Positions 3,298 through 39,129 of a DNA stretch of 64,000 bases are shown here, one piece after another. Location of the stretch: the NCBI GenBank assembly GCA_044233485.1, contig JBIIJY010000002.1, positions 8,047 to 72,046 of the forward strand, read 5' to 3'. The position numbers and the translations under genes are program-made. Source of the stretch: Minisyncoccia bacterium (lineage in GTDB: Bacteria; Patescibacteriota; Minisyncoccia; Phycocordibacterales; UBA6065). A model generated the notes under the pieces. That model ran no database searches, was not told where the DNA came from, and worked only from the letters and a program-made list of their open reading frames with translations. Position 1 is the stretch's first letter, and each line of letters opens with the position of its first letter.

Positions 3298-3603
3298 AGC
3301 CAATGACCAGAATTGAACTGGTGACCTTTCCCTTCGCTTCTACCTCAACTTCAAAGAAAATTAAACCTACTTATACTTGAGGGCTAGACTGTATCTTATA
3401 CCGCATCTTAATACGTGGTGTGGTACCCCTTGTCAGTCGTTCGGGCCCGGGTGCAATGCACTTTAGGACCACGGTCTTGTCCGGCAGGCCTGTGTGGTCG
3501 TCGGATGTTAACCGTAATTCGGGTTATCCAATCGGATTACTCCGAGAGGAGGCAACAATGAACTGTCACCATGGGAATGCTCTACCAACTGAGCTACATT
3601 GGC
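3298..3603 (-). tRNA. tRNA-Thr(GGU) interrupted by a 233-nt group-I-like intron in the anticodon loop (exons 3568-3603 and 3298-3334)
   Basis: 5' exon GCCAATGTAGCTCAGTTGGTAGAGCATTCCCATGGT, 3' exon AAGGGAAAGGTCACCAGTTCAATTCTGGTCATTGGCT. Spliced together they give a canonical 73-nt cloverleaf with anticodon loop AU-GGU-AA and T-loop TTCAATT. The 5' exon ends in U and the intron ends in G. The intron has an R-like element (GACTGACA), an S-like element (AAGATACAGTCT) and a P7-type pairing GACTG/CAGTC. Confidence 0.6.
3335..3567 (-). ncRNA. putative group I intron (self-splicing) within tRNA-Thr(GGU); no ORF inside
   Basis: See the tRNA feature above. Omega-G at the 3' end, U at the 5' splice site, R/S-like core elements. 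Confidence 0.5.
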
Positions 3604-3684: not shown

Positions 3685-6600
3685 TTACCTCCCCCTCCCC
3701 ATCACCCCCCTCGTCACCGGGCCAAAGAAGCCAAGAGCGGGAGTAATGTTGTTGGCTTTCTGGTAGCGGATGAGAGCAGCACGGGTAGCAGGGCCAAAGT
3801 AGAAGGTTTCGTTGCCAGGAGAGCCAAAGCCTGTCGTAGAGACAGTGAAGCCTTGTGAGTTCAAGAAGCGTTGGAGGAGCTGTACATCAGTACCGTATGA
3901 AGAGACGGTGAGACTACGGGTGAAGGTAGTGGGTGTAATGGGTGGTGGGAGGATGTTGGTGGTCGATGAGAGGCGTAGGAGTGTGGTGGTACCTCGGGGG
4001 GTGTTGACGACCACAGGAGCAGAGCGGCCGCCACCTCCTCCGCCGGAGCGAGAGATGGTGGTGACTACGGGAGCCGGGACAACAGTGAGAGTGAATTCTT
4101 GAGTATGGTAGAAGACTTGAGCCGCTGAGAGTGTATCAGTGATTTTGATACTGAAGGTAGAGGTGGTAGCGGTGGTTGGAGTACCACTGATGATGCCGGT
4201 GCTGGTGTTGAGAGAGAGGCCGTCGGGGAGGGTGCCAGAGGTGAGTTCATACGTAACAGTTCCCTGCTCTCCCTTAGGAGTGAGGAGGGTGAAATATGAA
4301 GTGCCGACCGTAGCCTGTGAGATGGTCGGTGAAGAGAAGGAGATCAGCTGGAAGAGGAGGAGGCGCCTTGGCGCTTGATCTGCGTAGTAGAGGATTCTAT
4401 CAGAATTATTAAACTCCATCGAGTAACCGTACTGAATGGCACTTTGCGTGACGGAATTCGTGTCGGTTATTGAAGTAAAATTAGTACTGTTAAGTATCGC
4501 CACCGCCCCTTCGTTATTTGCAATATCTGCCGTGTCATAAATTTTGACTCGGGCGACGTTGGACGCTTGTGCGTCCATGACATAGAGAAGTTTATTTTGA
4601 GAATCAAATGTAAGCGCATTTGGGCCAGTGAAGCCGGACTGTGTTGTCTCACTTACCTGTGCAGTGAAATTTACTTGCCCGAGTACATACGAAGCATCCA
4701 TACCGTTCGTAATACCACTGGAGAGATCGAAGACAAGAATGCGGTTGAACTGACCATCAGCTACAAACAAGAGTGAACGACCTTCATCAATAGCAATATC
4801 ACTAATAAAAGTACTTGATGCCGTTGGTGATGCCGGCTCTGTATCTGTCGTAAAATCCGGCTGCCCGAGCACATACGAAGCATCCATACCGTTGGTGATA
4901 CCACTGGAGAGATCGAAGACAAGAATGCGGTAATTTGACGGGTCATTTACAAAAAGTCGCTTATGAAGAGAGTCATATTCAATCCCATCGCCGTTGTAAC
5001 CAGCAAACTGATTTTCAGAAAGACCAGGAGAAAGAGTGGTGAAGTTTGTCGAACCAAGTACGTATGAAGCATTCATATTATCTACAACTCCATTTGAAAC
5101 ATCGAACACCAAGACGCGCCCGAAGTAATCGAGTACGAATAGTCGCTGCTCTTCATCATCATAAGTGATAGATTTTGAACCCAAACCAAATCTATTTGCT
5201 GTTGTAGTGGCGTTACATTCACGCTCAATGGAATCACAGCCAATTACCGCCTCTGGAGTGGTATCTACCGGACGACCACTGGCAGTGAGATTATACACTC
5301 GGACTTCACCGTTACCTCCCACAAAAAGTCTGTTGCGTGTCTCATCGACAGCAATCGCTATAGGAATAAGTCTATTGAATACCGGCTGATCATACACCTG
5401 ACTCTTAGAAAAGTTTTGATTTCCCTGCGAGTCCGTCTGGCCGAGTACTCTATATGCACTCATACCGTTTTCGATAGTTCCCGGACTCACATTAAAGACC
5501 AAAACTCGAGCGCGATCACTATCTGCCACAAACAGGTCGAGCTCACCGTTACCTCTGACATTAATCTGTAAATCTCCTGCAGAACCTACGTTATTTCCAG
5601 AGACAGATGGGTCATAGTCAGACCCTGTATAGTATGCGGAAGTAAAGTTGGGACCACCCAACACATACGTCGCATCCATACCATTGGTAATCCCCCCCGA
5701 GAGGTCGAAGATGAGGATGCGACCAAATTCAAAAACATACAGTCTGTTTTGATGAACGGTAATCGAACTAGGCGCATTAACAAAACTAGAGCCGGTCATT
5801 CCTGTAACTCCCGACTCGAAATCCGGTTGCCCGAGTACATACGACGGATCCATGCCATTCGTGATTCCACCCGAGAGATCGAAGACAAGGATACGGTAGG
5901 AATATGCATCAAGTACAAAAAGTCTCTCGCTCACCTCATCGTAAAAAACATCATTTACATCAATCGTAGAACTCGCCGTCAAACTGTCTCCAAGATTTGT
6001 TTCCAAATCTGGCTGCCCGAGTGCATACGAAGCATCCATATTGTCCATAATCCCAGCACTCATATCAAAAATAAGCACTCGATTTAAGGTTTGATCTGTC
6101 ACAAATAATCGCTCAGTTGTCGTACTGTAGTGAATTTTTCCTACTGCAGCGAAGTTGTTTGCAAGTGGTGATAATGGTGAATCCCCTGTCTCAAAATCTG
6201 GCTGCCCGAGCACATACGACGCGTCCATACCATTGGTAATTCCCCCCGAGAGGTCGAAGACGAGAATGCGATTCCAAAGGTAGTCTGCAACATAGAGGAG
6301 TTGATTCACCGAGTCAATTTCGATTCCACTTGCTGCGAACTCACGGGCATTTGCGTCAACTGGACTATTGTTAGTCACAAAATCTGGTTGCCCCAGAACA
6401 TAGTCTGCAACATTATCAATAAGTTCATTATCAGTCGTAAGATTGTAGACCAAGATACGTGTCTCACCATCGAGAACATAGAGCTTGTGATGCACTGGAT
6501 CCAGAGTAATTGAAAAAGGCCACTGGAAACCGTTGGCGCTCGCATCGATATTCCCGCCGTATGAAGTAGTAAAGCTCGGATTACCACTTACATCAAACGT

Positions 6601-8408: not shown

Positions 8409-10454
8409 TTATATATCGAGGTTCGCTTTGTGAGCGTTGGACTGAATGAAGGACTTTCGGGCTGGAACATCGGTACCCATGAGCATATCGAATATCTTAT
8501 CTGCTTCAACGGCATCGTCAATTGACACCTGCTTGAGCACACGACGAGCTGGATCCATGGTAGTCTCCCACAATTCATCAGCATTCATCTCACCGAGACC
8601 CTTGTATCGCTGAACATTCACTTTTGCTTTACGTGGCGTTTTACCTTCCACTTCTTCCTCTTCTTGCACTTCGGTGTCAGAACTTTCTACTTCGATTTCA
8701 GTCTTTCCGAGAACTTTTGCTTTTTCTTCTTCAGAATAAAAATAGAGAATTTCTTTTCCTCGCTTTACTTTGTAGAGTGGCGGTTGAGCAATGTAGATAA
8801 AGCCGCCATCAATGAGTGGTCGGAAATATCGATAGAGCAGAGTGAGGATCAGGGTTCGAATATGTGCACCGTCCACGTCCGCATCGGTAGCAATGATGAT
8901 TTTGTGATAACGAAGTTTTGAGAGATCAAAGGTGTCTCCAATCGCTGTCCCCATCGCGATGACGAGATTACGGATCTGCTCTGAGCCAAGCATACGATCA
9001 AGTCGTGCACGCTCGATGTTCAAGATCTTTCCTCGTAGTGGCAGCACCGCTTGTGTACGTCGATCACGTCCCTGCTTAGCCGTCCCTCCCGCTGAATCTC
9101 CCTCCACAATAAACACTTCAGACTCTTCGGCAGAGCGTGACTCACAGTCAGCGAGCTTTCCCGGCAGAGTCATACCTTCAAGCACCCCTTTTCGTAGCAC
9201 TGAATCCTTAGCTGCTTTTGCTGCTTTTCGCGCCTTCATCGCAAGGACTACTTTTCCGACAATTGCCTTTGCATCATCAGGATTTTCTTCCAAGAAAACA
9301 TTGAATGCCTCACTGAAGACCGACGCGACTGCGCCTTGCGCTTCCACAGAACCAAGCTTGGCTTTTGTCTGTCCTTCAAATTGAATCTCGCGAAGCTTGA
9401 CCGAGACTACCGCAGTGAGACCTTCGAGCACATCGTCACCAGTGAAACTATCATCTTCACCTTTTACCAAGTTATTTTTCTTGGCATAGGTGTTGAGCGT
9501 TCGAGTCAATGCGGTTTTGAAACCAGTAATATGCGTACCACCCTCAGGGTTATAGATATTGTTAGCAAAAGCAGAGATACGCGATGGAATATCATCGACA
9601 TACTGAAGGGCGATTTCCACAGACTCCACTCCTTCAACCTGCTTCTCTACATAAAATACATTCTTGTGAACTGGCTTCTGGAGATTATTATTAAAACGGA
9701 CGAGTGAAGCAAGTCCACCTTCAAAATAAAACGTATATGATGGCGCCTCGAGGCCCGCGTCAGTGAGATAGTATGAATCAACGAGGTCTGGAACTTTTGC
9801 AGCGTCTACTGTACGCGCATCAACCACTGTGATCCGCAATCCACGAACGAGATATGCCTGCTGACGAACATGGTTTACGACACGATGAAAATCGAAAACT
9901 TGATGACCGAAAATTACTTCATCAGGTTGAAAAGTAACGATTGTACCGTGCGCTTTGGATGCGCCGATTTTTTTTGTCTGAGTTTTAACCTTTCCTTGTG
10001 AGTACTCCTGGAAATAGTGCCCGCCGTCTTTATGTACATCGACTCGACAGTACACTGAAAGGGCATTGACCACCGACGCACCCACACCGTGAAGACCACC
10101 AGACACTTTATAACCACTTCCCTCACCACCGAATTTTCCTCCGGCATGAAGAACTGTCATGATGGTCTCGAGAGCTGAAACCTTTGTCTGCTTGTGCACA
10201 TCCACCGGGATACCTCGACCATTATCAACCACACGCACCTTCTCACCAGGTAAAAGCACGATCTCGATACGGTCGGCATGGTTTCCCATCGCTTCATCAC
10301 GAGAGTTGTCAAAAATTTCCCAAATAAGGTGATGAAAACCGTCTGGCCCAGTCGTACCGATGTACATTCCGGGGCGCTTTCGTACTGGCTCAAGACCCTC
10401 AAGAACTTGGATCGAATCCGCACCGTAATTACCTTTTTCTTTCTCTTTTGCCAT
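8409..10454 (-). CDS. gyrB: DNA gyrase subunit B
   Basis: N-terminus YGADSIQVLEGLEPVRKRPGMYIGTTG, GHKL ATPase, Toprim and C-terminal motifs (LYKVKRGKE, GLGEMNADELWETTMDP). Confidence 0.95.
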   Translation of the reverse strand: MAKEKEKGNYGADSIQVLEGLEPVRKRPGMYIGTTGPDGFHHLIWEIFDNSRDEAMGNHADRIEIVLLPGEKVRVVDNGRGIPVDVHKQTKVSALETIMTVLHAGGKFGGEGSGYKVSGGLHGVGASVVNALSVYCRVDVHKDGGHYFQEYSQGKVKTQTKKIGASKAHGTIVTFQPDEVIFGHQVFDFHRVVNHVRQQAYLVRGLRITVVDARTVDAAKVPDLVDSYYLTDAGLEAPSYTFYFEGGLASLVRFNNNLQKPVHKNVFYVEKQVEGVESVEIALQYVDDIPSRISAFANNIYNPEGGTHITGFKTALTRTLNTYAKKNNLVKGEDDSFTGDDVLEGLTAVVSVKLREIQFEGQTKAKLGSVEAQGAVASVFSEAFNVFLEENPDDAKAIVGKVVLAMKARKAAKAAKDSVLRKGVLEGMTLPGKLADCESRSAEESEVFIVEGDSAGGTAKQGRDRRTQAVLPLRGKILNIERARLDRMLGSEQIRNLVIAMGTAIGDTFDLSKLRYHKIIIATDADVDGAHIRTLILTLLYRYFRPLIDGGFIYIAQPPLYKVKRGKEILYFYSEEEKAKVLGKTEIEVESSDTEVQEEEEVEGKTPRKAKVNVQRYKGLGEMNADELWETTMDPARRVLKQVSIDDAVEADKIFDMLMGTDVPARKSFIQSNAHKANLDI

Positions 10455-10500
10455 AGATGTATATACATACTAGTATATCATTTTCTGAAATCTGTCGCAT

Positions 10501-10528
10501 TTGACAGTCTCGGTCCGTATCGTAATAT
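10501..10528 (+). promoter_or_regulatory. sigma70-like promoter (TTGACA-16nt-TAATAT) for the thrS leader
   Basis: Perfect -35 hexamer at 10501-10506 and a -10-like hexamer at 10523-10528, about 290 nt upstream of the thrS ATG. Confidence 0.4.
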
Positions 10529-10535
10529 ATAGATG

Positions 10536-10810
10536 AATATGAGCACTCGTGGAATTTATTCCTCGACACGACCTAGCCCCACGCTAGGTCTTTTACTTTA
10601 CGTAGCTACTCCTCTGCGCTAGTATAGTGAGTATAGAGATTGTCATGGCTACCACCCATGATTTGTATCCACAAAGCCTCGTGCCTAATCTATACTCAAG
10701 AGACGCTTGAGCATACTCAAGCTAAAAGCCCGGTGGAACCGCGCCTGAGCGCCCGAGCATGTACACGACATTTGTCGCGTATACGCTTGGGTGCTTTTTA
10801 TTTATTAATT
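10536..10810 (+). promoter_or_regulatory. T-box riboswitch leader (Thr-specific) controlling thrS by transcription attenuation
   Basis: Conserved T-box sequence AGCCCGGTGGAACCGCG (10727-10743; consensus AGGGUGGNACCGCG). Immediately downstream, a 10-bp terminator GCGCCCGAGC...GCTTGGGTGC plus T5 (10749-10799) can form the alternative antiterminator. ACCA specifier candidate at 10651-10654. Confidence 0.65.
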
Positions 10811-10817
10811 TACTTCA

Positions 10818-12557
10818 ATGAATCACGAACAATTACCACTTATACGACACTCACTTGCTCACCTTCTCGCCAGTGCTGTACTCGCTCTCTACCCTGAGAC
10901 AAAAGTAACGATCGGCCCAGCGATCGACAATGGCTTTTATTATGACTTCGATTTTGTCACACCACCAAGCGAAAAAGACTTGGGGAAAATCGAGCAAAAG
11001 ATGCGAGAGATCGGAAAGAAGTGGGACAGATTCACCGCTCGTGAAGTCAGTGCTGAGGAAGCTCGAGCTCACTTTGCTGGTAACCAGTATAAACTTGAAC
11101 TTATTGAAGAAATCATCGCCAAAGGTGAAAAAATCACTCTCTACACATCGGGTGATTTTACTGATCTCTGCCGTGGAGGACATGTCGAGTCAATGAAAGC
11201 CGTTGATTTTTCTGGCTTTAAACTCTCACGAATCGCTGGTGCGTACTGGCGCGGCGACGAGAAAAACAAAATGCTCACGCGAATTTATGGTCTCGCTTTC
11301 TTAAGTAAGGCGGACTTGGAAGCATATGAACTCATGCTCGTAGAAGCAAAGAAACGTGATCATAAAGTATTAGGCCCAGCTCTTGATTTGTTCACTTTCT
11401 CAGACCTCGTAGGCACTGGACTCCCTCTTTGGACTCCTCGAGGTACTATCGTGAGAAACCTCCTCGACCAGTACGTATGGTTACTACGGTCACGTTATGA
11501 CTATGAGCGTGTGGAGATACCCCATATCACCAAAAAAGACCTCTACATGACGAGTGGTCATTGGGATAAATACCAAGACGACCTCTTCAAAATAAAAACT
11601 CGTGAGGGACACGAATTCGTCATGAAACCAATGAATTGTCCTCACCACACACAGATCTATGCACGTAAGCAATGGAGTTATAAAGAACTTCCACAACGTT
11701 ACGCCAATACAACCACTTGTTATCGTGATGAGCAGTCGGGAGAGCTCTCAGGACTCTCGCGAGTTCGAGCATTCGCTCAAGATGACGCTCATGTCTTCTG
11801 CCGAATGCAGGACGTTAAAGCCGAGTTTATGAAAGTTTGGGATATTATTCATGAGTTCTATCCGAAATTCGGATTGAATCTACAAGTTCGCTTCTCTCGC
11901 CGCGACCCACAGACACCAGAAAAGTATCTTGGTAGTGCCGAGCGGTGGGATATCGCTGAAAATTTCCTAAAAGAAATCTTGAGTGAGAAACAAGCAGTTG
12001 CAATTGACGGCCCTGGCGAAGCAGCGTTTTACGGGCCGAAGCTCGACTTCATGGCCAAAGATTCTCTTGGCAGAGAGTGGCAGGTGGCAACCATCCAGCT
12101 CGATTTGAACATGCCAGAACGATTTAATCTCGAGTGTGTGAATGAAAAGGGTGAGAAAGAACGTATCGTTATGATACATGCGGCAATTATGGGATCGATT
12201 GAGCGCTTCCTTTCAATCATCATTGAACATTTCGGCGGTAACTTCCCTCTCTGGCTCGCTCCGGTACAGGTAAAGATTATTCCTATACGAGAGAATCACG
12301 CTGAAGCAGCACGCACAGTAGCTGACGCTCTCGAAAAAGCAGGACTACGTGTAGATCTCGATTGTAGTGATACAGGATTTGGTAAAAAAGTACGGGAAGC
12401 AAAAGATATGAAGGTGCCATACACCATCATCATTGGCGACAAAGATATTGAGGCAGGGAAAGTCACTCTTGAGAGTCGTGATGCTGGGCAGATTGGTCAA
12501 CTCAGCGTAGACGAAGTACTCGAACGAATTACCCAAGAAATACAAAAGCGTTCATAA
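10818..12557 (+). CDS. thrS: threonyl-tRNA synthetase (lacks the N-terminal TGS domain)
   Basis: HSLAHLLASAV second-additional-domain HxxxH motif. Class II core motifs. C-terminal anticodon-binding domain. Confidence 0.9.
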   Translation: MNHEQLPLIRHSLAHLLASAVLALYPETKVTIGPAIDNGFYYDFDFVTPPSEKDLGKIEQKMREIGKKWDRFTAREVSAEEARAHFAGNQYKLELIEEIIAKGEKITLYTSGDFTDLCRGGHVESMKAVDFSGFKLSRIAGAYWRGDEKNKMLTRIYGLAFLSKADLEAYELMLVEAKKRDHKVLGPALDLFTFSDLVGTGLPLWTPRGTIVRNLLDQYVWLLRSRYDYERVEIPHITKKDLYMTSGHWDKYQDDLFKIKTREGHEFVMKPMNCPHHTQIYARKQWSYKELPQRYANTTTCYRDEQSGELSGLSRVRAFAQDDAHVFCRMQDVKAEFMKVWDIIHEFYPKFGLNLQVRFSRRDPQTPEKYLGSAERWDIAENFLKEILSEKQAVAIDGPGEAAFYGPKLDFMAKDSLGREWQVATIQLDLNMPERFNLECVNEKGEKERIVMIHAAIMGSIERFLSIIIEHFGGNFPLWLAPVQVKIIPIRENHAEAARTVADALEKAGLRVDLDCSDTGFGKKVREAKDMKVPYTIIIGDKDIEAGKVTLESRDAGQIGQLSVDEVLERITQEIQKRS

Positions 12558-18616: not shown

Positions 18617-18645
18617 ATAAAAAACCGGCCGAAGCCGGTTTTTTA
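18617..18645. terminator. rho-independent terminator
   Basis: AAAAAACCGGCC-GAA-GCCGGTTTTTT directly after the stop of the sigma-like gene. Confidence 0.75.
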
Positions 18646-18647
18646 TA

Positions 18648-19712
18648 CTATTTTGCGAGAGCCACTCCTTCAGCTGGATGATATTTACCATCCTTGTCCT
18701 TACGGAAGAACTTTGGGTTCTGAAGATTCACGAGAATCGTATTTTCCTTAACATATCGTTCCTTAAGTACTTTTTCGATTACCTCCTGACGTGAGAGTGG
18801 ACCATTTTTCTCGAGTACTTCTCGAATGACATCCTTGACGACACCTGAGGCATATCCCCACTCCTTAAGAGCGTAGAGTCCACGGCCGACAAGAACGAAA
18901 CGACTGTCCTTGATGAGCTCGTTATGAGTTGTTGCCACGTGAGCTTTCTTGTTAAAAATCTTTTCAATCTGTCGAGCGACTTCCTTGAAGTGAATCGGTG
19001 ATCCGTGCTTTCGAATGACGAGGAAGGCGTAGTCTCGCATCCCTTTCGCCTTGATGTTTGGTGAGTGTGCCACTCCCCATTCACCGAGCGGATTTTTGTC
19101 CATTCGCTTTGAAATCTTGAGCCATCGCTTGATGATTTCCTCTTGCTTGTACTGCTCTGCCACTTCTTTCAAATGCTCGAGGAAGTTTGTGATCATGTCT
19201 GACTCTGCTACGAGATCTTCGTCTGTGAGACTTTCATAGAGCTTGTGAAGGGCGCCGTGAATCTTTTCTGCGTGCGTCTTGTCGATGAACCATCGATGCT
19301 GGAAATGATCATCTTCCTTATGTCGTGAGAATCGGTGTCCGGCAACGAGAAGGAAATGAAAATGGTTCTGAGTACTTTTATCTTTTGCAAATTCTTCGAG
19401 GAGATCTGACTCGACAACGATACCACCGAGTTCAGTAATCACTTTTTCAAGTTCAGCAAATTCTTTTACTGAGAGTTCGTACTCTTTTGATTTACGAATA
19501 TTGGTAAGGGCGTAGTTCTCAATCTGTCGAACTCGTTCTCGAGTGATGCCATAGATAGCACCGATCGCTTCGAGTGTCATTCGATCGGTATTTTTGCCAA
19601 GTCCATAACGAGCAATCAAGACCTCACGGGCTCGTTCTGGCAGACATTTGAGAAGTTGTTTGGTGAGCTGTTTCGGTTTAAACGAGAACTCACGCGCTTT
19701 TTTGGCACCCAT
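18648..19712 (-). CDS. DNA-binding protein with N-terminal sigma-70 region-4-like HTH and C-terminal HARE-HTH-like winged helix
   Basis: LIARYGL...MTLEAIGAIYGITRERVRQIENYAL is a classic region 4.2 HTH. The C-terminus has IHFKEVARQIEKIF...FVLVGRGLYALKEWGY. Confidence 0.55.
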   Translation of the reverse strand: MGAKKAREFSFKPKQLTKQLLKCLPERAREVLIARYGLGKNTDRMTLEAIGAIYGITRERVRQIENYALTNIRKSKEYELSVKEFAELEKVITELGGIVVESDLLEEFAKDKSTQNHFHFLLVAGHRFSRHKEDDHFQHRWFIDKTHAEKIHGALHKLYESLTDEDLVAESDMITNFLEHLKEVAEQYKQEEIIKRWLKISKRMDKNPLGEWGVAHSPNIKAKGMRDYAFLVIRKHGSPIHFKEVARQIEKIFNKKAHVATTHNELIKDSRFVLVGRGLYALKEWGYASGVVKDVIREVLEKNGPLSRQEVIEKVLKERYVKENTILVNLQNPKFFRKDKDGKYHPAEGVALAK

Positions 19713-36863: not shown

Positions 36864-37775
36864 ATGCTTACTCGCCACCGTTTTGGAGACGTAACCTGGA
36901 TCGACTACACAAGCCCGACAACGGACGAGCTAGCTATCCTCAAAAACGAACTCGGTCTCGACCCACTGGTCGCTGAGCATATCGCTGAACCGAACCTGCG
37001 CCAGAAAGTAATTTCATTCGGTAGTGCCACCTTTCTTACACTGTATATACCGACGAAAGTCTCAGGAAAGCTAACCTCAGAATGTGAGGTAGATTTTGTC
37101 ATCGCTCCGAACCTCCTCATCACTTCACGATTCAATGAAGTAGATTCGATTCTCGAATTCAGTCGAAAAGTGGAGATGCTTGAGACATTACACAAACACT
37201 CGCTTCACAATTCTTCACTACGACTTTTTTTCTACCTTCTTGAGCACATATACACGCGTATTCATGAACAGTTTCGCTCGAACGAACATCAGCTCAAGCG
37301 CATTGAGGATTCGATTTTCGCTGGGCGTGAGAAAGAAGTCGTGACCGAGCTTTCACGTGTCTCTCGAGAGATTCTTGCATACAAAAAATCACTCTCATTC
37401 CACGATGATGTCCTCGAGGCACTGAATGTACCTCTCCAAGCCATTGATGGTGAACATTCAAAAAAGCGAATCGCGAGTGCCATACGAACACACAACAAAC
37501 TTTTCGATGAAGTACTGGCCGGACATGAGTTACTTGTCGAACTACGTGCCACAAACGACTCCCTCCTTGAGCACAAGCAAAACACGGCCGTACAAATACT
37601 CACCTTCGTGACAGTAGTCACCTCACTTGCTTCACTCATTGGTGTTATCTTCACCATGCCATTTGCCCATGTTCCACTCCTTGAACACCCCTATGGCTTT
37701 TGGATCGTATTACTCTGTATGTGCGGTCTCGTACTCGTAGCTCTTGAAATTTTTAAACGAAATCGCTGGCTCTAA
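36864..37775 (+). CDS. CorA-like divalent cation transporter homologue with non-canonical TMP in place of the GMN motif
   Basis: Coiled soluble domain plus two C-terminal TM helices. IFTMPF sits at the position of YGMNF. Confidence 0.5.
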   Translation: MLTRHRFGDVTWIDYTSPTTDELAILKNELGLDPLVAEHIAEPNLRQKVISFGSATFLTLYIPTKVSGKLTSECEVDFVIAPNLLITSRFNEVDSILEFSRKVEMLETLHKHSLHNSSLRLFFYLLEHIYTRIHEQFRSNEHQLKRIEDSIFAGREKEVVTELSRVSREILAYKKSLSFHDDVLEALNVPLQAIDGEHSKKRIASAIRTHNKLFDEVLAGHELLVELRATNDSLLEHKQNTAVQILTFVTVVTSLASLIGVIFTMPFAHVPLLEHPYGFWIVLLCMCGLVLVALEIFKRNRWL

Positions 37776-37788
37776 TCACCCTCCTACC

Positions 37789-39129
37789 ATGCTCAAACTT
37801 ACCAACACACTCACCCGGACTCGAGAAGAGTTTCATCCTCATGACTCGAAACATGTAACCCTCTATCACTGTGGGCCGACTGTCTATGACCGTGTCCATA
37901 TCGGAAATCTCCGCACGTTCATCACCAATGACATTCTTCGTCGTGCTCTCGAAATTCTCGGATACTCAGTGACCCAAGTCATGAATATCACTGACGTCGA
38001 TGACAAAACGATTCGTCGCAGTCAAGAACAAGGAATCACACTCTCAGAACTAACAACTCGATATGAAGATATTTTTCTTGATGATCTGCGAAGTGTGAAT
38101 ATTCTCGCCCCACATCACCTTCCTCGAGCGCGGACTTACATTCCACACATGATCTCCTTCATCGAGGACTTACTCACAAAGGGGTTTGCGTACAAAGCTG
38201 AGGATGGTGTTTATTTTTCTGTGGCAAAATCGGCCGGCTACGGCGCTCTCGCTCATATACATCTTGACCACGCACAGTCTGCGGGTCGATCACGGATTGA
38301 TGAGTATGACAAAGACAGTGTCGGTGATTTTGCGCTCTGGAAATTTGTCACTCCTGAGGATGGTGCAAATTTTTGGCCTTCACCGTTTGGTGATGGTCGC
38401 CCAGGGTGGCATATTGAATGTTCAGCCATGTCACAAGCCCTCCTTGGTGAGACCATCGATATTCACACCGGTGGTACTGACTTATGCTTCCCACATCACG
38501 TGAACGAAATCGCTCAGAGTGAGGCACATACCGGAAAACCATTTGTTCGCTACTGGGTACATGGTGCTTTCTTGAATTTGAAGGACAGTAAAATGTCAAA
38601 ATCAAAAGGTAATATCCTCACTCTCGGCACTCTGGTAGAGGAAGGATACTCTCCTCTAGATTTTCGCTACCTGACCTTGGGCGCTCACTACACCAGTCTG
38701 CTTGACTTTAGTTTCGAATCACTTGCAGCAAGTCGAACCGCTCGACGACGAGTCAAGGACACTATTGTTAAACTTCCGGAAGGTGGCGCGCTCGTATCTG
38801 GATACACCGAGCGGTTTGTCGCCGCCCTTGAGGATGACATCAACGCCCCGAAAGTGCTTGCCCTTCTGCATGAACTACTCGCTGATCCAGACGTGATTGA
38901 TAAAGATAAAAAGACTACAGCACTCTATCTCGATTTCTTCCTCGGACTTGAACTGGGTATACCCGATCAGACAGAGCTTAGTGAAGAAGTACTCAAGCTG
39001 GCACATGAGCGCCACGAAGCTCGCACACGCAAAGACTGGAAAACATCTGACGAGCTCCGTGCTAAAATAGAATCATACGGCTACCATGTTCTCGATACAC
39101 CATCTGGACAACACATCACAGAAGAATAG
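37789..39129 (+). CDS. cysS: cysteinyl-tRNA synthetase
   Basis: MLKLTNTLTRTREEF, HIGNLRTF (HIGH), KMSKSKGN. Confidence 0.9.
   Translation: MLKLTNTLTRTREEFHPHDSKHVTLYHCGPTVYDRVHIGNLRTFITNDILRRALEILGYSVTQVMNITDVDDKTIRRSQEQGITLSELTTRYEDIFLDDLRSVNILAPHHLPRARTYIPHMISFIEDLLTKGFAYKAEDGVYFSVAKSAGYGALAHIHLDHAQSAGRSRIDEYDKDSVGDFALWKFVTPEDGANFWPSPFGDGRPGWHIECSAMSQALLGETIDIHTGGTDLCFPHHVNEIAQSEAHTGKPFVRYWVHGAFLNLKDSKMSKSKGNILTLGTLVEEGYSPLDFRYLTLGAHYTSLLDFSFESLAASRTARRRVKDTIVKLPEGGALVSGYTERFVAALEDDINAPKVLALLHELLADPDVIDKDKKTTALYLDFFLGLELGIPDQTELSEEVLKLAHERHEARTRKDWKTSDELRAKIESYGYHVLDTPSGQHITEE

Follow-up and report, generated by a model that had tools for sequence, protein, structure and literature searches.

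A probable threonine-specific T-box riboswitch with a compact non-canonical decoding domain in thrS leaders of Patescibacteria

INTRODUCTION

The locus analyzed here raises the question whether the threonyl-tRNA synthetase (ThrRS) gene of a reduced bacterial genome is controlled by a T-box riboswitch and, if so, by which structural elements the cognate tRNA-Thr would be recognized. The leader in question is situated in a stretch of 64,000 nucleotides (nt) of contig JBIIJY010000002.1 (Minisyncoccia bacterium, assembly GCA_044233485.1, positions 8,047–72,046 of the forward strand), hereafter called the window and numbered from its first letter; features are on the plus strand unless stated otherwise. 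It corresponds to the intergenic region between gyrB (8409–10454, minus strand) and an open reading frame (ORF) of 579 residues (10818–12557) that was identified as thrS, coding for threonine--tRNA ligase (TIGR00418, E = 1.2e-196, 655 bits for a cutoff of 383.65), and that would be the regulated gene. The nearest ThrRS relatives of the window are found only in metagenome-assembled genomes of Patescibacteria (50–66% identity), so that the genome is of the candidate phyla radiation (CPR) type, as had been supposed in a first-pass annotation made from the sequence alone. The same annotation had placed a Thr-specific T-box in front of thrS. The present analysis indicates that the leader is very probably a functional Thr-specific T-box riboswitch regulating thrS through attenuation of transcription, the binding of tRNA being deduced from sequence features. 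The presence of a T-box before thrS is in itself unremarkable; the new aspect is the combination of a minimal, non-canonical decoding domain with a transcription terminator, which is widespread in the CPR.

RESULTS AND DISCUSSION

Discriminator, antiterminator and terminator

The T-box string AGCCCGGUGGAACCGCG is located at 10727–10743, and the window has a single exact copy of the motif GGTGGNACCRCG, all matches with one mismatch falling inside ORFs. According to a review, a T-box discriminator comprises the succession RRRxG-Stem III-AA, a 7-nt bulge and a G·U pair at the base of helix A2 (PMC7583486). The first half of the discriminator (10698–10727), which aligns to positions 147–190 of the Rfam model RF00230 and for which the family of related leaders described below gives the consensus AAGnG-stem-AAA, contains the purine string AAGAG (10698–10702) as the RRRxG motif, a Stem III formed by GCUUGAG (10705–10711) and CUCAAGC (10716–10722), and the segment UAAAA (10723–10727), whose run of A residues (10724–10727) supplies the AA motif. 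The antiterminator (10728–10758, −12.0 kcal/mol), delimited by the partial RF00230 alignment, by RNAalifold and by covariation, is composed of helix A1 (GCCCGG, 10728–10733, with CCGAGC, 10753–10758, including one C·A mismatch), the 7-nt T-box bulge UGGAACC (10734–10740) and helix A2 (GCGC, 10741–10744, with GCGC, 10749–10752). The first four residues of the bulge, UGGA (10734–10737), are complementary to a U73-CCA end.

The intrinsic terminator (10749–10799) consists of a 46-nt hairpin (10749–10794, −30.1 kcal/mol), in which GCGCCCGAGC (10749–10758) and GCUUGGGUGC (10785–10794) form the outer 10 bp, and of five U residues (10795–10799) that end 18 nt upstream of the thrS ATG at 10818; the arrangement of T-box, 10-bp terminator and U5 read in the first-pass annotation is thus the one we find. 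Residues 10749–10758 are common to the 3' half of the antiterminator and the 5' arm of the terminator, so that the two folds are mutually exclusive, and because the terminator is calculated to be the more stable on these same 10 nt (−30.1 vs. −12.0 kcal/mol), the default state is predicted to be termination. Of 111 family members, 108 have an equivalent hairpin (median −30 kcal/mol) with a U-run, and in 100 of these 108 it begins between 0 and 24 nt after the bulge. By its sequence the leader is assigned to the transcription-attenuation class.

The search with RF00230 that the first-pass annotation had proposed gave, in a permissive scan of 10400–10900, a local match of 14.4 bits (E = 0.67) that places model positions 147–216 on 10686–10756 and that is confined to Stem III and the antiterminator. 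Under permissive conditions 11 of 20 family members reached 27–53 bits (E down to 6e-9), with only the 3' domain aligning sensibly.

Decoding domain

The same annotation had suggested folding the 5' half for a Stem I with a kink-turn (K-turn) and a distal loop. None of canonical form was obtained; the specifier is found in a terminal loop inside a helix-closed junction. The closing helix, P1, appears in the minimum free energy fold and pairs GAGUAUAGA (10629–10637) with UCUAUACUC (10689–10697), its core of 6 bp being 10632–10637 with 10689–10694. It is supported by complementarity in the relatives, where the 4 nt preceding GAUUG are perfectly complemented directly after YAA in 105 cases out of 110 (an alignment-free check), and by covariation, five out of five pairs showing changes on both sides while 92% remain paired. 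The junction strand GAUUG (10638–10642) follows P1. It is present in seven of the eight genome loci that were first found by the T-box motif alone, the remaining one, L031, having GAUCG (related loci are designated by L and a number); it is also invariant in the alignment of leaders described below, in which the metagenomic rows were forced to it by the search pattern.

The specifier hairpin (10643–10661) comes next, with a stem of 6 bp (UCAUGG/CCAUGA) and a 7-nt terminal loop, CUACCAC (10649–10655), which contains the Thr codon ACC (10651–10653) followed by A10654. The candidate specifier ACCA (10651–10654), noticed in the first pass as a match to the anticodon GGU, therefore lies in the loop of a conserved and co-varying hairpin. 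In an alignment-free count all six positions of the stem are paired in 92–100% of cases, with at least five pair types each, and ACC with its following A is invariant in the 13 CPR genome loci that were found without constraining ACC, as it is in the window. The family consensus of the loop is CUACCAA, of which the window carries the variant CUACCAC; in L036 the seventh loop residue is G.

Folds of the inner region reveal a small, variable hairpin, hp2 (UUUGU/ACAAA with the loop AUCC, 10662–10675), and a further element, hp3 (GC-CUCGU-GC, 10676–10684), which is marginal in the window, where it is not predicted when the inner segment is folded alone, and clearer in the relatives, often as a hairpin of 2–5 bp or as a GNRA-like element. 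The second junction strand, CCUAA (10684–10688; N-Y-A-A in the family), is at least 90% conserved in the alignment and directly precedes the 3' strand of P1. A pairing of the UUG of GAUUG with YAA is possible, its sole variation being a change from G·U to G–C in eight sequences. The region from the specifier hairpin to UAA folds better than shuffled sequences (mean z = −2.06). Of 101 relatives, 75 have a first inner helix that follows the specifier hairpin directly (0 nt) and 68 have a last one that stops 1 nt short of UAA; two inner hairpins are present in 56 of 102. Since the inner helices abut both the specifier hairpin and UAA, the sequences describe the decoding domain as a compact four-way junction, sometimes a three-way one, closed by P1 around the specifier hairpin, hp2 and hp3.

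Neither an S-turn (AGUA/GAA) nor a CCGUUA F-box occurs in 10656–10700. A K-turn at the base of P1 was not seen by inspection, GAUUG being found on the 5' side and YAA on the 3' side with no 3-nt bulge and tandem G·A/A·G pairs, and a long Stem I, an elbow platform and a IIA/B pseudoknot are likewise lacking, the columns for Stem II and IIA/B in RF00230 having no meaningful alignment in the leader.

Conservation and covariation in CPR leaders

The motif GGTGGNACCRCG was found upstream of thrS and on the thrS strand in eight related CPR genome loci, approximately 90–300 nt before the gene (approximately 670 nt in L036), and a relaxed motif search added five further CPR genome loci, for a total of at least 13. 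These loci span Parcubacteria, Nomurabacteria, Falkowbacteria, Doudnabacteria, Moraniibacteria, Kerfeldbacteria and Saccharimonadia. Their leaders share one order of elements, namely P1, GAUUG, the specifier hairpin, one or two small hairpins, (C)CUAA and the 3' strand of P1, then AAGnG, Stem III, AA, A1, UGGAACC, A2 and a long terminator with its U-run. Metagenomic contigs were scanned with a pattern that fixed only GATTG, CTACCAA and GGTGGAACC, all helices being left free, and at least 120 were recovered. A thrS gene lies within 1.5 kb downstream in 109 of the 120 metagenomic matches listed; of the 11 listed matches without thrS, four are unstructured and most of the other seven have little downstream sequence. 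The four unstructured ones (L104, L115, L158 and L196) are chance matches to the pattern and were excluded. The comparison of related thrS leaders, which the first-pass annotation had also put forward, therefore finds the same element in at least 116 metagenomic contigs besides the CPR genomes.

An alignment of 115 leaders was made with MAFFT from sequence only. RNAalifold predicts from it, unprompted, the specifier hairpin and the A1 and A2 helices. For a structure of 21 pairs (P1, specifier hairpin, A1 and A2), 94.0% of the cells are paired, to be compared with 34–46% when the 3' partners are slid by 1–3 columns, and the covariation score is 0.744 as against at most 0.12 after sliding; none of 500 shuffles reaches the observed value. 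Changes on both sides are seen in 18 of the 21 pairs, and compensatory changes affect four of six A1 pairs and three of four A2 pairs. A profile built with nhmmer from 114 related leaders, the window being excluded, matches 10632–10774 with E = 2.8e-15, as the sole match in the 64 kb, and also recovers the independent genome loci L033, L036, L031, L026, L041 and L027. From these sequences purifying selection is evident in a set of more than 110 divergent leaders belonging to ThrRS proteins that are 40–77% identical. The first-pass annotation had made its reading depend on a T-box model match or a conserved specifier architecture; the latter is what the family displays, and it co-varies. Homology of the discriminator, the profile match, covariation and linkage to thrS are among the grounds on which its assignment of a Thr-specific T-box to this gene is retained.

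The architecture with a codon other than ACC, and any other T-box discriminator, were sought in 1.46 Mb (the window and 200 loci), a sequence set centred on thrS, and only background was returned. Several variants of the architecture were noticed within the family. In a Nomurabacteria-like subgroup (L021, L098, L109, L110, L113, L128, L132, L146 and others) there is no Stem III helix, and a purine-rich linker of the form AAAGAACAAAGUUGGGUGG connects the decoding domain to A1. The Doudnabacteria locus L004 (2816–2945) has a K-turn-like internal loop and the specifier hairpin only, with no hp2, hp3 or Stem III; L025 (2789–2964) and L053 (2801–2949) have an enlarged loop containing CUAACCAA; and GAUUG is missing from L041 (2807–2950). 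L026 (100–445), labelled as an uncultured gammaproteobacterium, carries a CPR-type thrS leader with the bulge UGGAAAC and a CPR-like thrS, and is probably mis-binned.

Start of the leader

Among 108 family members the TANNNT hexamers show a sharp peak at position −18 relative to GAUUG, mostly accompanied by a TTG-type −35 element at a spacing of 16–18 nt. The TAGTAT hexamer of the window (10620–10625) is found exactly at this position and, together with TTTACG (10597–10602) at a spacing of 17 nt, forms a candidate promoter for the T-box and thrS (10597–10625). The pair is weak, with 8 of 12 consensus matches, and is absent from the promoter-scan output. Because the −10 hexamers of the family peak 18 nt before GAUUG and TAGTAT sits there in the window, transcription most likely starts near 10632, at P1, and the riboswitch proper would begin at approximately 10629–10632 and not at 10536. 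The interval 10536–10810 given in the first-pass annotation does contain the element; its first ~95 nt (10536–10628) are probably upstream of the riboswitch's own promoter and would have to be removed from it. With a promoter directly before P1, no space is left for a long Stem I.

The upstream region (10501–10599) contains a promoter, TTGACA-16-TAATAT (10501–10528), a hairpin (10547–10566) and a second hairpin with a U-run (10570–10599). It is probably a neighbouring feature outside the riboswitch, and the ~95 nt upstream are unconserved among relatives. The near-consensus promoter at 10501–10528 with the hairpin and U-run could yield a transcript of approximately 60 nt or act as an insulating terminator. 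In the nearest relatives, L138 and L130, a terminator-like hairpin with a U-run likewise stands right before the T-box promoter.

tRNA-Thr genes of the window

The window contains two tRNA-Thr genes, both on the minus strand and both with U73, as the first-pass annotation had reported, along with the presence of an intron in the cognate one. The gene of tRNA-Thr(GGU), the cognate ligand (3298–3603), is split into exons 3603–3568 and 3334–3298 by an intron of 233 nt (3567–3335) located between nt 36 and 37. It was missed by ARAGORN, including its intron mode, and by Rfam, and was recovered by a pattern search for the D-arm and T-arm followed by manual splicing; the sequence spliced in silico is recognized by ARAGORN as a clean tRNA-Thr(ggt). 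The second gene, tRNA-Thr(CGU) (2352–2425), was found by both ARAGORN and Rfam; its 3' end would fit UGGA, and its anticodon mismatches ACC. The only further tRNA-Thr found in the related loci, tRNA-Thr(UGU) of L138, the nearest relative, also has U73. The bulge had been said in the first pass to co-vary with U73 of the local tRNA-Thr. The complementarity of the two stands; covariation is too strong a word, since UGGA is found in every unforced family member, so that there is no variation in UGGN and N73 from which it could be demonstrated.

The intron of tRNA-Thr(GGU) resembles group I introns by eye, with a P1-like helix of GGU|GAC and GUUGCC in which the last exon base, U, can pair with G; it ends in G, and its string AAGAUACAGUCU is similar to the group I J8/7-P7 consensus. 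No Rfam intron family matched it at E ≤ 10.

Proposed mode of action

The following mechanism would account for these features. A transcript starting near 10632 would fold the decoding domain (10629–10697) first. The loop C-U-ACC-A-C is laid out like an anticodon loop (Y32-U33-triplet-R37) and would present the Thr codon ACC, to which the anticodon GGU of tRNA-Thr(GGU) could pair in a loop–loop contact. tRNAs with complementary anticodons form contacts of this kind, and such a geometry is proposed here because C-U-ACC-A-N follows the anticodon-loop pattern of pyrimidine, U, triplet and purine. The invariant nucleotides of the junction may support the contact and stand in for the absent Stem I platform and the S-turn of Stem II; should UUG pair with YAA, the GA of GAUUG would bulge and could buttress the contact in the manner of the Stem II purines of ileS T-boxes. 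With uncharged tRNA, U73-C-C-A would pair with UGGA and stabilize the weak antiterminator against the terminator, allowing read-through into thrS. Charged tRNA would be unable to stabilize the antiterminator, and transcription would stop at the U-run 10795–10799. Binding of tRNA and sensing of its charge are deduced here from the homology of the discriminator. As to whether the leaders form a third structural class of T-box, characterized by a helix-closed, cloverleaf-like junction, capture by kissing loops, a buttress in the junction and co-transcriptional action, we consider the arguments for and against to be evenly balanced.

Alternative explanations

Several observations weigh against a functional T-box of this kind. 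The known modules of tRNA affinity (the distal platform of Stem I, the K-turn, the S-turn of Stem II and the IIA/B pseudoknot) are absent, and a terminal loop alone would have to capture tRNA fast enough for co-transcriptional action; the long Stem I platform is generally needed by transcriptional T-boxes, an intermediate or ultrashort Stem I being found in the majority of the translational ones (PMC7583486). At the gathering score of RF00230 (93 bits) neither the window nor any of 20 related loci gives a match. L001 and L002, the two closest ThrRS relatives, have no such leader, on account of which it is taken to be dispensable in some lineages. In the window itself hp3 is only marginal, the basal pair of A2 (10741:10752) is G–C and not the canonical G·U, to which the steric sensing of the aminoacyl group is ascribed, and A1 contains the C·A mismatch (10730:10756).

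One alternative is that the leader is a decayed, constitutive attenuator, that is, a relic T-box that sets only a basal level of termination and no longer senses tRNA. CPR genomes are reduced, some close relatives have lost the element, and the window departs from the consensus at three points (the loop CUACCAC, the C·A pair in A1 and the G–C pair at the base of A2). Each departure recurs in the family, however, which suggests tolerated variation: among the 115 aligned leaders the basal pair of A2 (columns 174:214) is G·U in 54, G–C in 42 and A–U in 8, the A1 pair (columns 163:226) alternates between U–A, U·G, C–G and C·A, the latter occurring 11 times, and loop position 7 varies in L036 as well. 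All invariant nucleotides and helices are intact in the window, which the profile recognizes with the E-value given above, and purifying selection is evident in the divergent leaders. We regard decay as very unlikely.

A second view, that an ordinary T-box with a long Stem I, a K-turn and a distal platform lies within 10536–10700 and was overlooked by the covariance model, could draw on the ~95 nt of structured RNA upstream, with its two hairpins and the strong promoter at 10501–10528, and on the fact that in some relatives Rfam forces a global alignment to model positions 1–219. These global alignments put the Stem I columns on promoter DNA, and they score 27–53 bits against the 93 required. 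As the promoter of the relatives lies directly before P1, and TAGTAT of the window likewise, a long Stem I finds no place; the ~95 nt upstream are not conserved in the relatives, and a co-varying stem of 6 bp closes the terminal loop that holds the specifier. This makes an overlooked canonical T-box extremely improbable. To the same slight degree we would credit a protein operator, in which ThrRS would bind the hairpin as an imitation of the anticodon arm and control the terminator. The translational, autoregulatory operator of E. coli thrS mimics the anticodon loop of tRNA-Thr and binds ThrRS, and the hairpin of the leader, also located upstream of thrS, is sized like an anticodon arm, with 6 bp, a loop of 7 nt and U at the second loop position. 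Its loop displays the codon ACC, however, and not a Thr anticodon NGU, so that it is the complement of tRNA-Thr rather than its mimic, and an operator leaves unexplained the UGGAACC bulge, the purine motif of Stem III and the overlap of antiterminator and terminator, all hallmarks of the T-box. A codon-displaying loop beside a discriminator and a terminator designates the tRNA, and therefore not the enzyme, as the probable ligand. A functional Thr-specific T-box acting on transcription thus remains the reading that we prefer.

Comparison with known T-box riboswitches

The regulatory logic and the whole 3' discriminator are those of the class I T-boxes of Firmicutes (B. subtilis thrS, tyrS and glyQS; RF00230), namely a terminator and an antiterminator with one strand in common, a UGGN bulge that pairs with the NCCA end of the tRNA, and a specifier codon that encodes the substrate amino acid of the regulated aminoacyl-tRNA synthetase (aaRS), here ACC for Thr, followed by a purine. 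The parts described for class I and for T-boxes in general include the K-turn, the specifier, the distal T-loop platform, the S-turn and the IIA/B pseudoknot (PMC7583486). The CPR leader differs in having no long Stem I, no elbow platform of interdigitated T-loops, no basal K-turn, no Stem II S-turn, no IIA/B pseudoknot and no F-box, and in carrying its specifier in a terminal and not an internal loop; inside its P1 lie the specifier hairpin and two small hairpins, along with the invariant GAUUG and CUAA. Its scores of 14–53 bits compare with the 93 bits of RF00230, and its hosts are CPR bacteria (Patescibacteria) and not Firmicutes.

The closest known relatives, as far as they can be compared from the descriptions given in later papers, are the actinobacterial ileS T-boxes with an ultrashort (US) Stem I (TBDB class II). 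The US T-boxes are translational, confined to ileS and have their specifier in a terminal loop (bioRxiv 10.1101/2023.02.28.530422), and the ileS T-boxes with a short Stem I need a Stem I with a K-turn, a Stem II bearing an S-turn and the IIA/B pseudoknot in linear succession (PMC10651847; PMC7583486). Common to both are the terminal-loop specifier on a short hairpin, the lack of an elbow-binding distal domain and the restriction to a single aaRS gene in one phylum. On the other hand, US T-boxes sequester the Shine-Dalgarno sequence, sense tRNA-Ile and regulate ileS, whereas the CPR leader uses a terminator and is directed to Thr and thrS, and its extra helices are short, variable and enclosed by P1, with no signature of an S-turn or pseudoknot. 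The sub-variant L004 is US-like in that a K-turn-type internal loop lies under its specifier hairpin. With the E. coli thrS operator the CPR leader shares its position before thrS and a hairpin of anticodon-arm dimensions; it differs by a loop that shows the complementary codon beside a T-box discriminator and terminator.

TBDB was built with RF00230 and with a class II model run on Actinobacteria only (PMC7778990), and would therefore miss the CPR leader. In the searchable literature, which covers subscription papers incompletely, we found no earlier T-box from CPR, Patescibacteria, Saccharibacteria or Parcubacteria, nor a thrS T-box variant. Nearly all of the known diversity of T-boxes stems from Firmicutes (class I) and Actinobacteria (class II), and RF00230 and TBDB are blind to the leader described here. 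T-boxes are a model case for the recognition of a structured ligand by RNA and are targets for antibiotics, and a conserved T-box devoid of the accessory tRNA-binding modules raises the question of what is minimally needed for a fast and specific capture of tRNA. Its decoding domain of approximately 65 nt would offer a compact natural scaffold for structural work and engineering. If the leaders do form a third class, they would contradict the need for an elbow-binding Stem I platform in transcriptional T-boxes and would be among the smallest natural tRNA-sensing transcriptional switches (~170 nt), apparently widespread in Patescibacteria. CPR bacteria, ultra-reduced and thought to import amino acids from their hosts, would have kept an RNA-based sensing of tRNA-Thr charge for one synthetase gene at least. 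The CPR leader could serve as a native regulatory part in Patescibacteria, for which the use of riboswitches to control expression has been proposed (PMC11665869).

Other features of the window

The near-matches to the T-box at 3985 (plus), 5860 (minus), 45040 (minus) and 45428 (plus) lie within long ORFs, have no structure upstream and were discarded as chance occurrences. The window also contains cysS (37744–39129), in front of which no T-box-like leader was seen; within the 64 kb, T-box control is indicated at thrS only. Finally, a sub-threshold match to the Rfam family rsmX was recorded at 18619–18698 on the minus strand, with 32.3 bits for a gathering score of 56 and E = 0.031.

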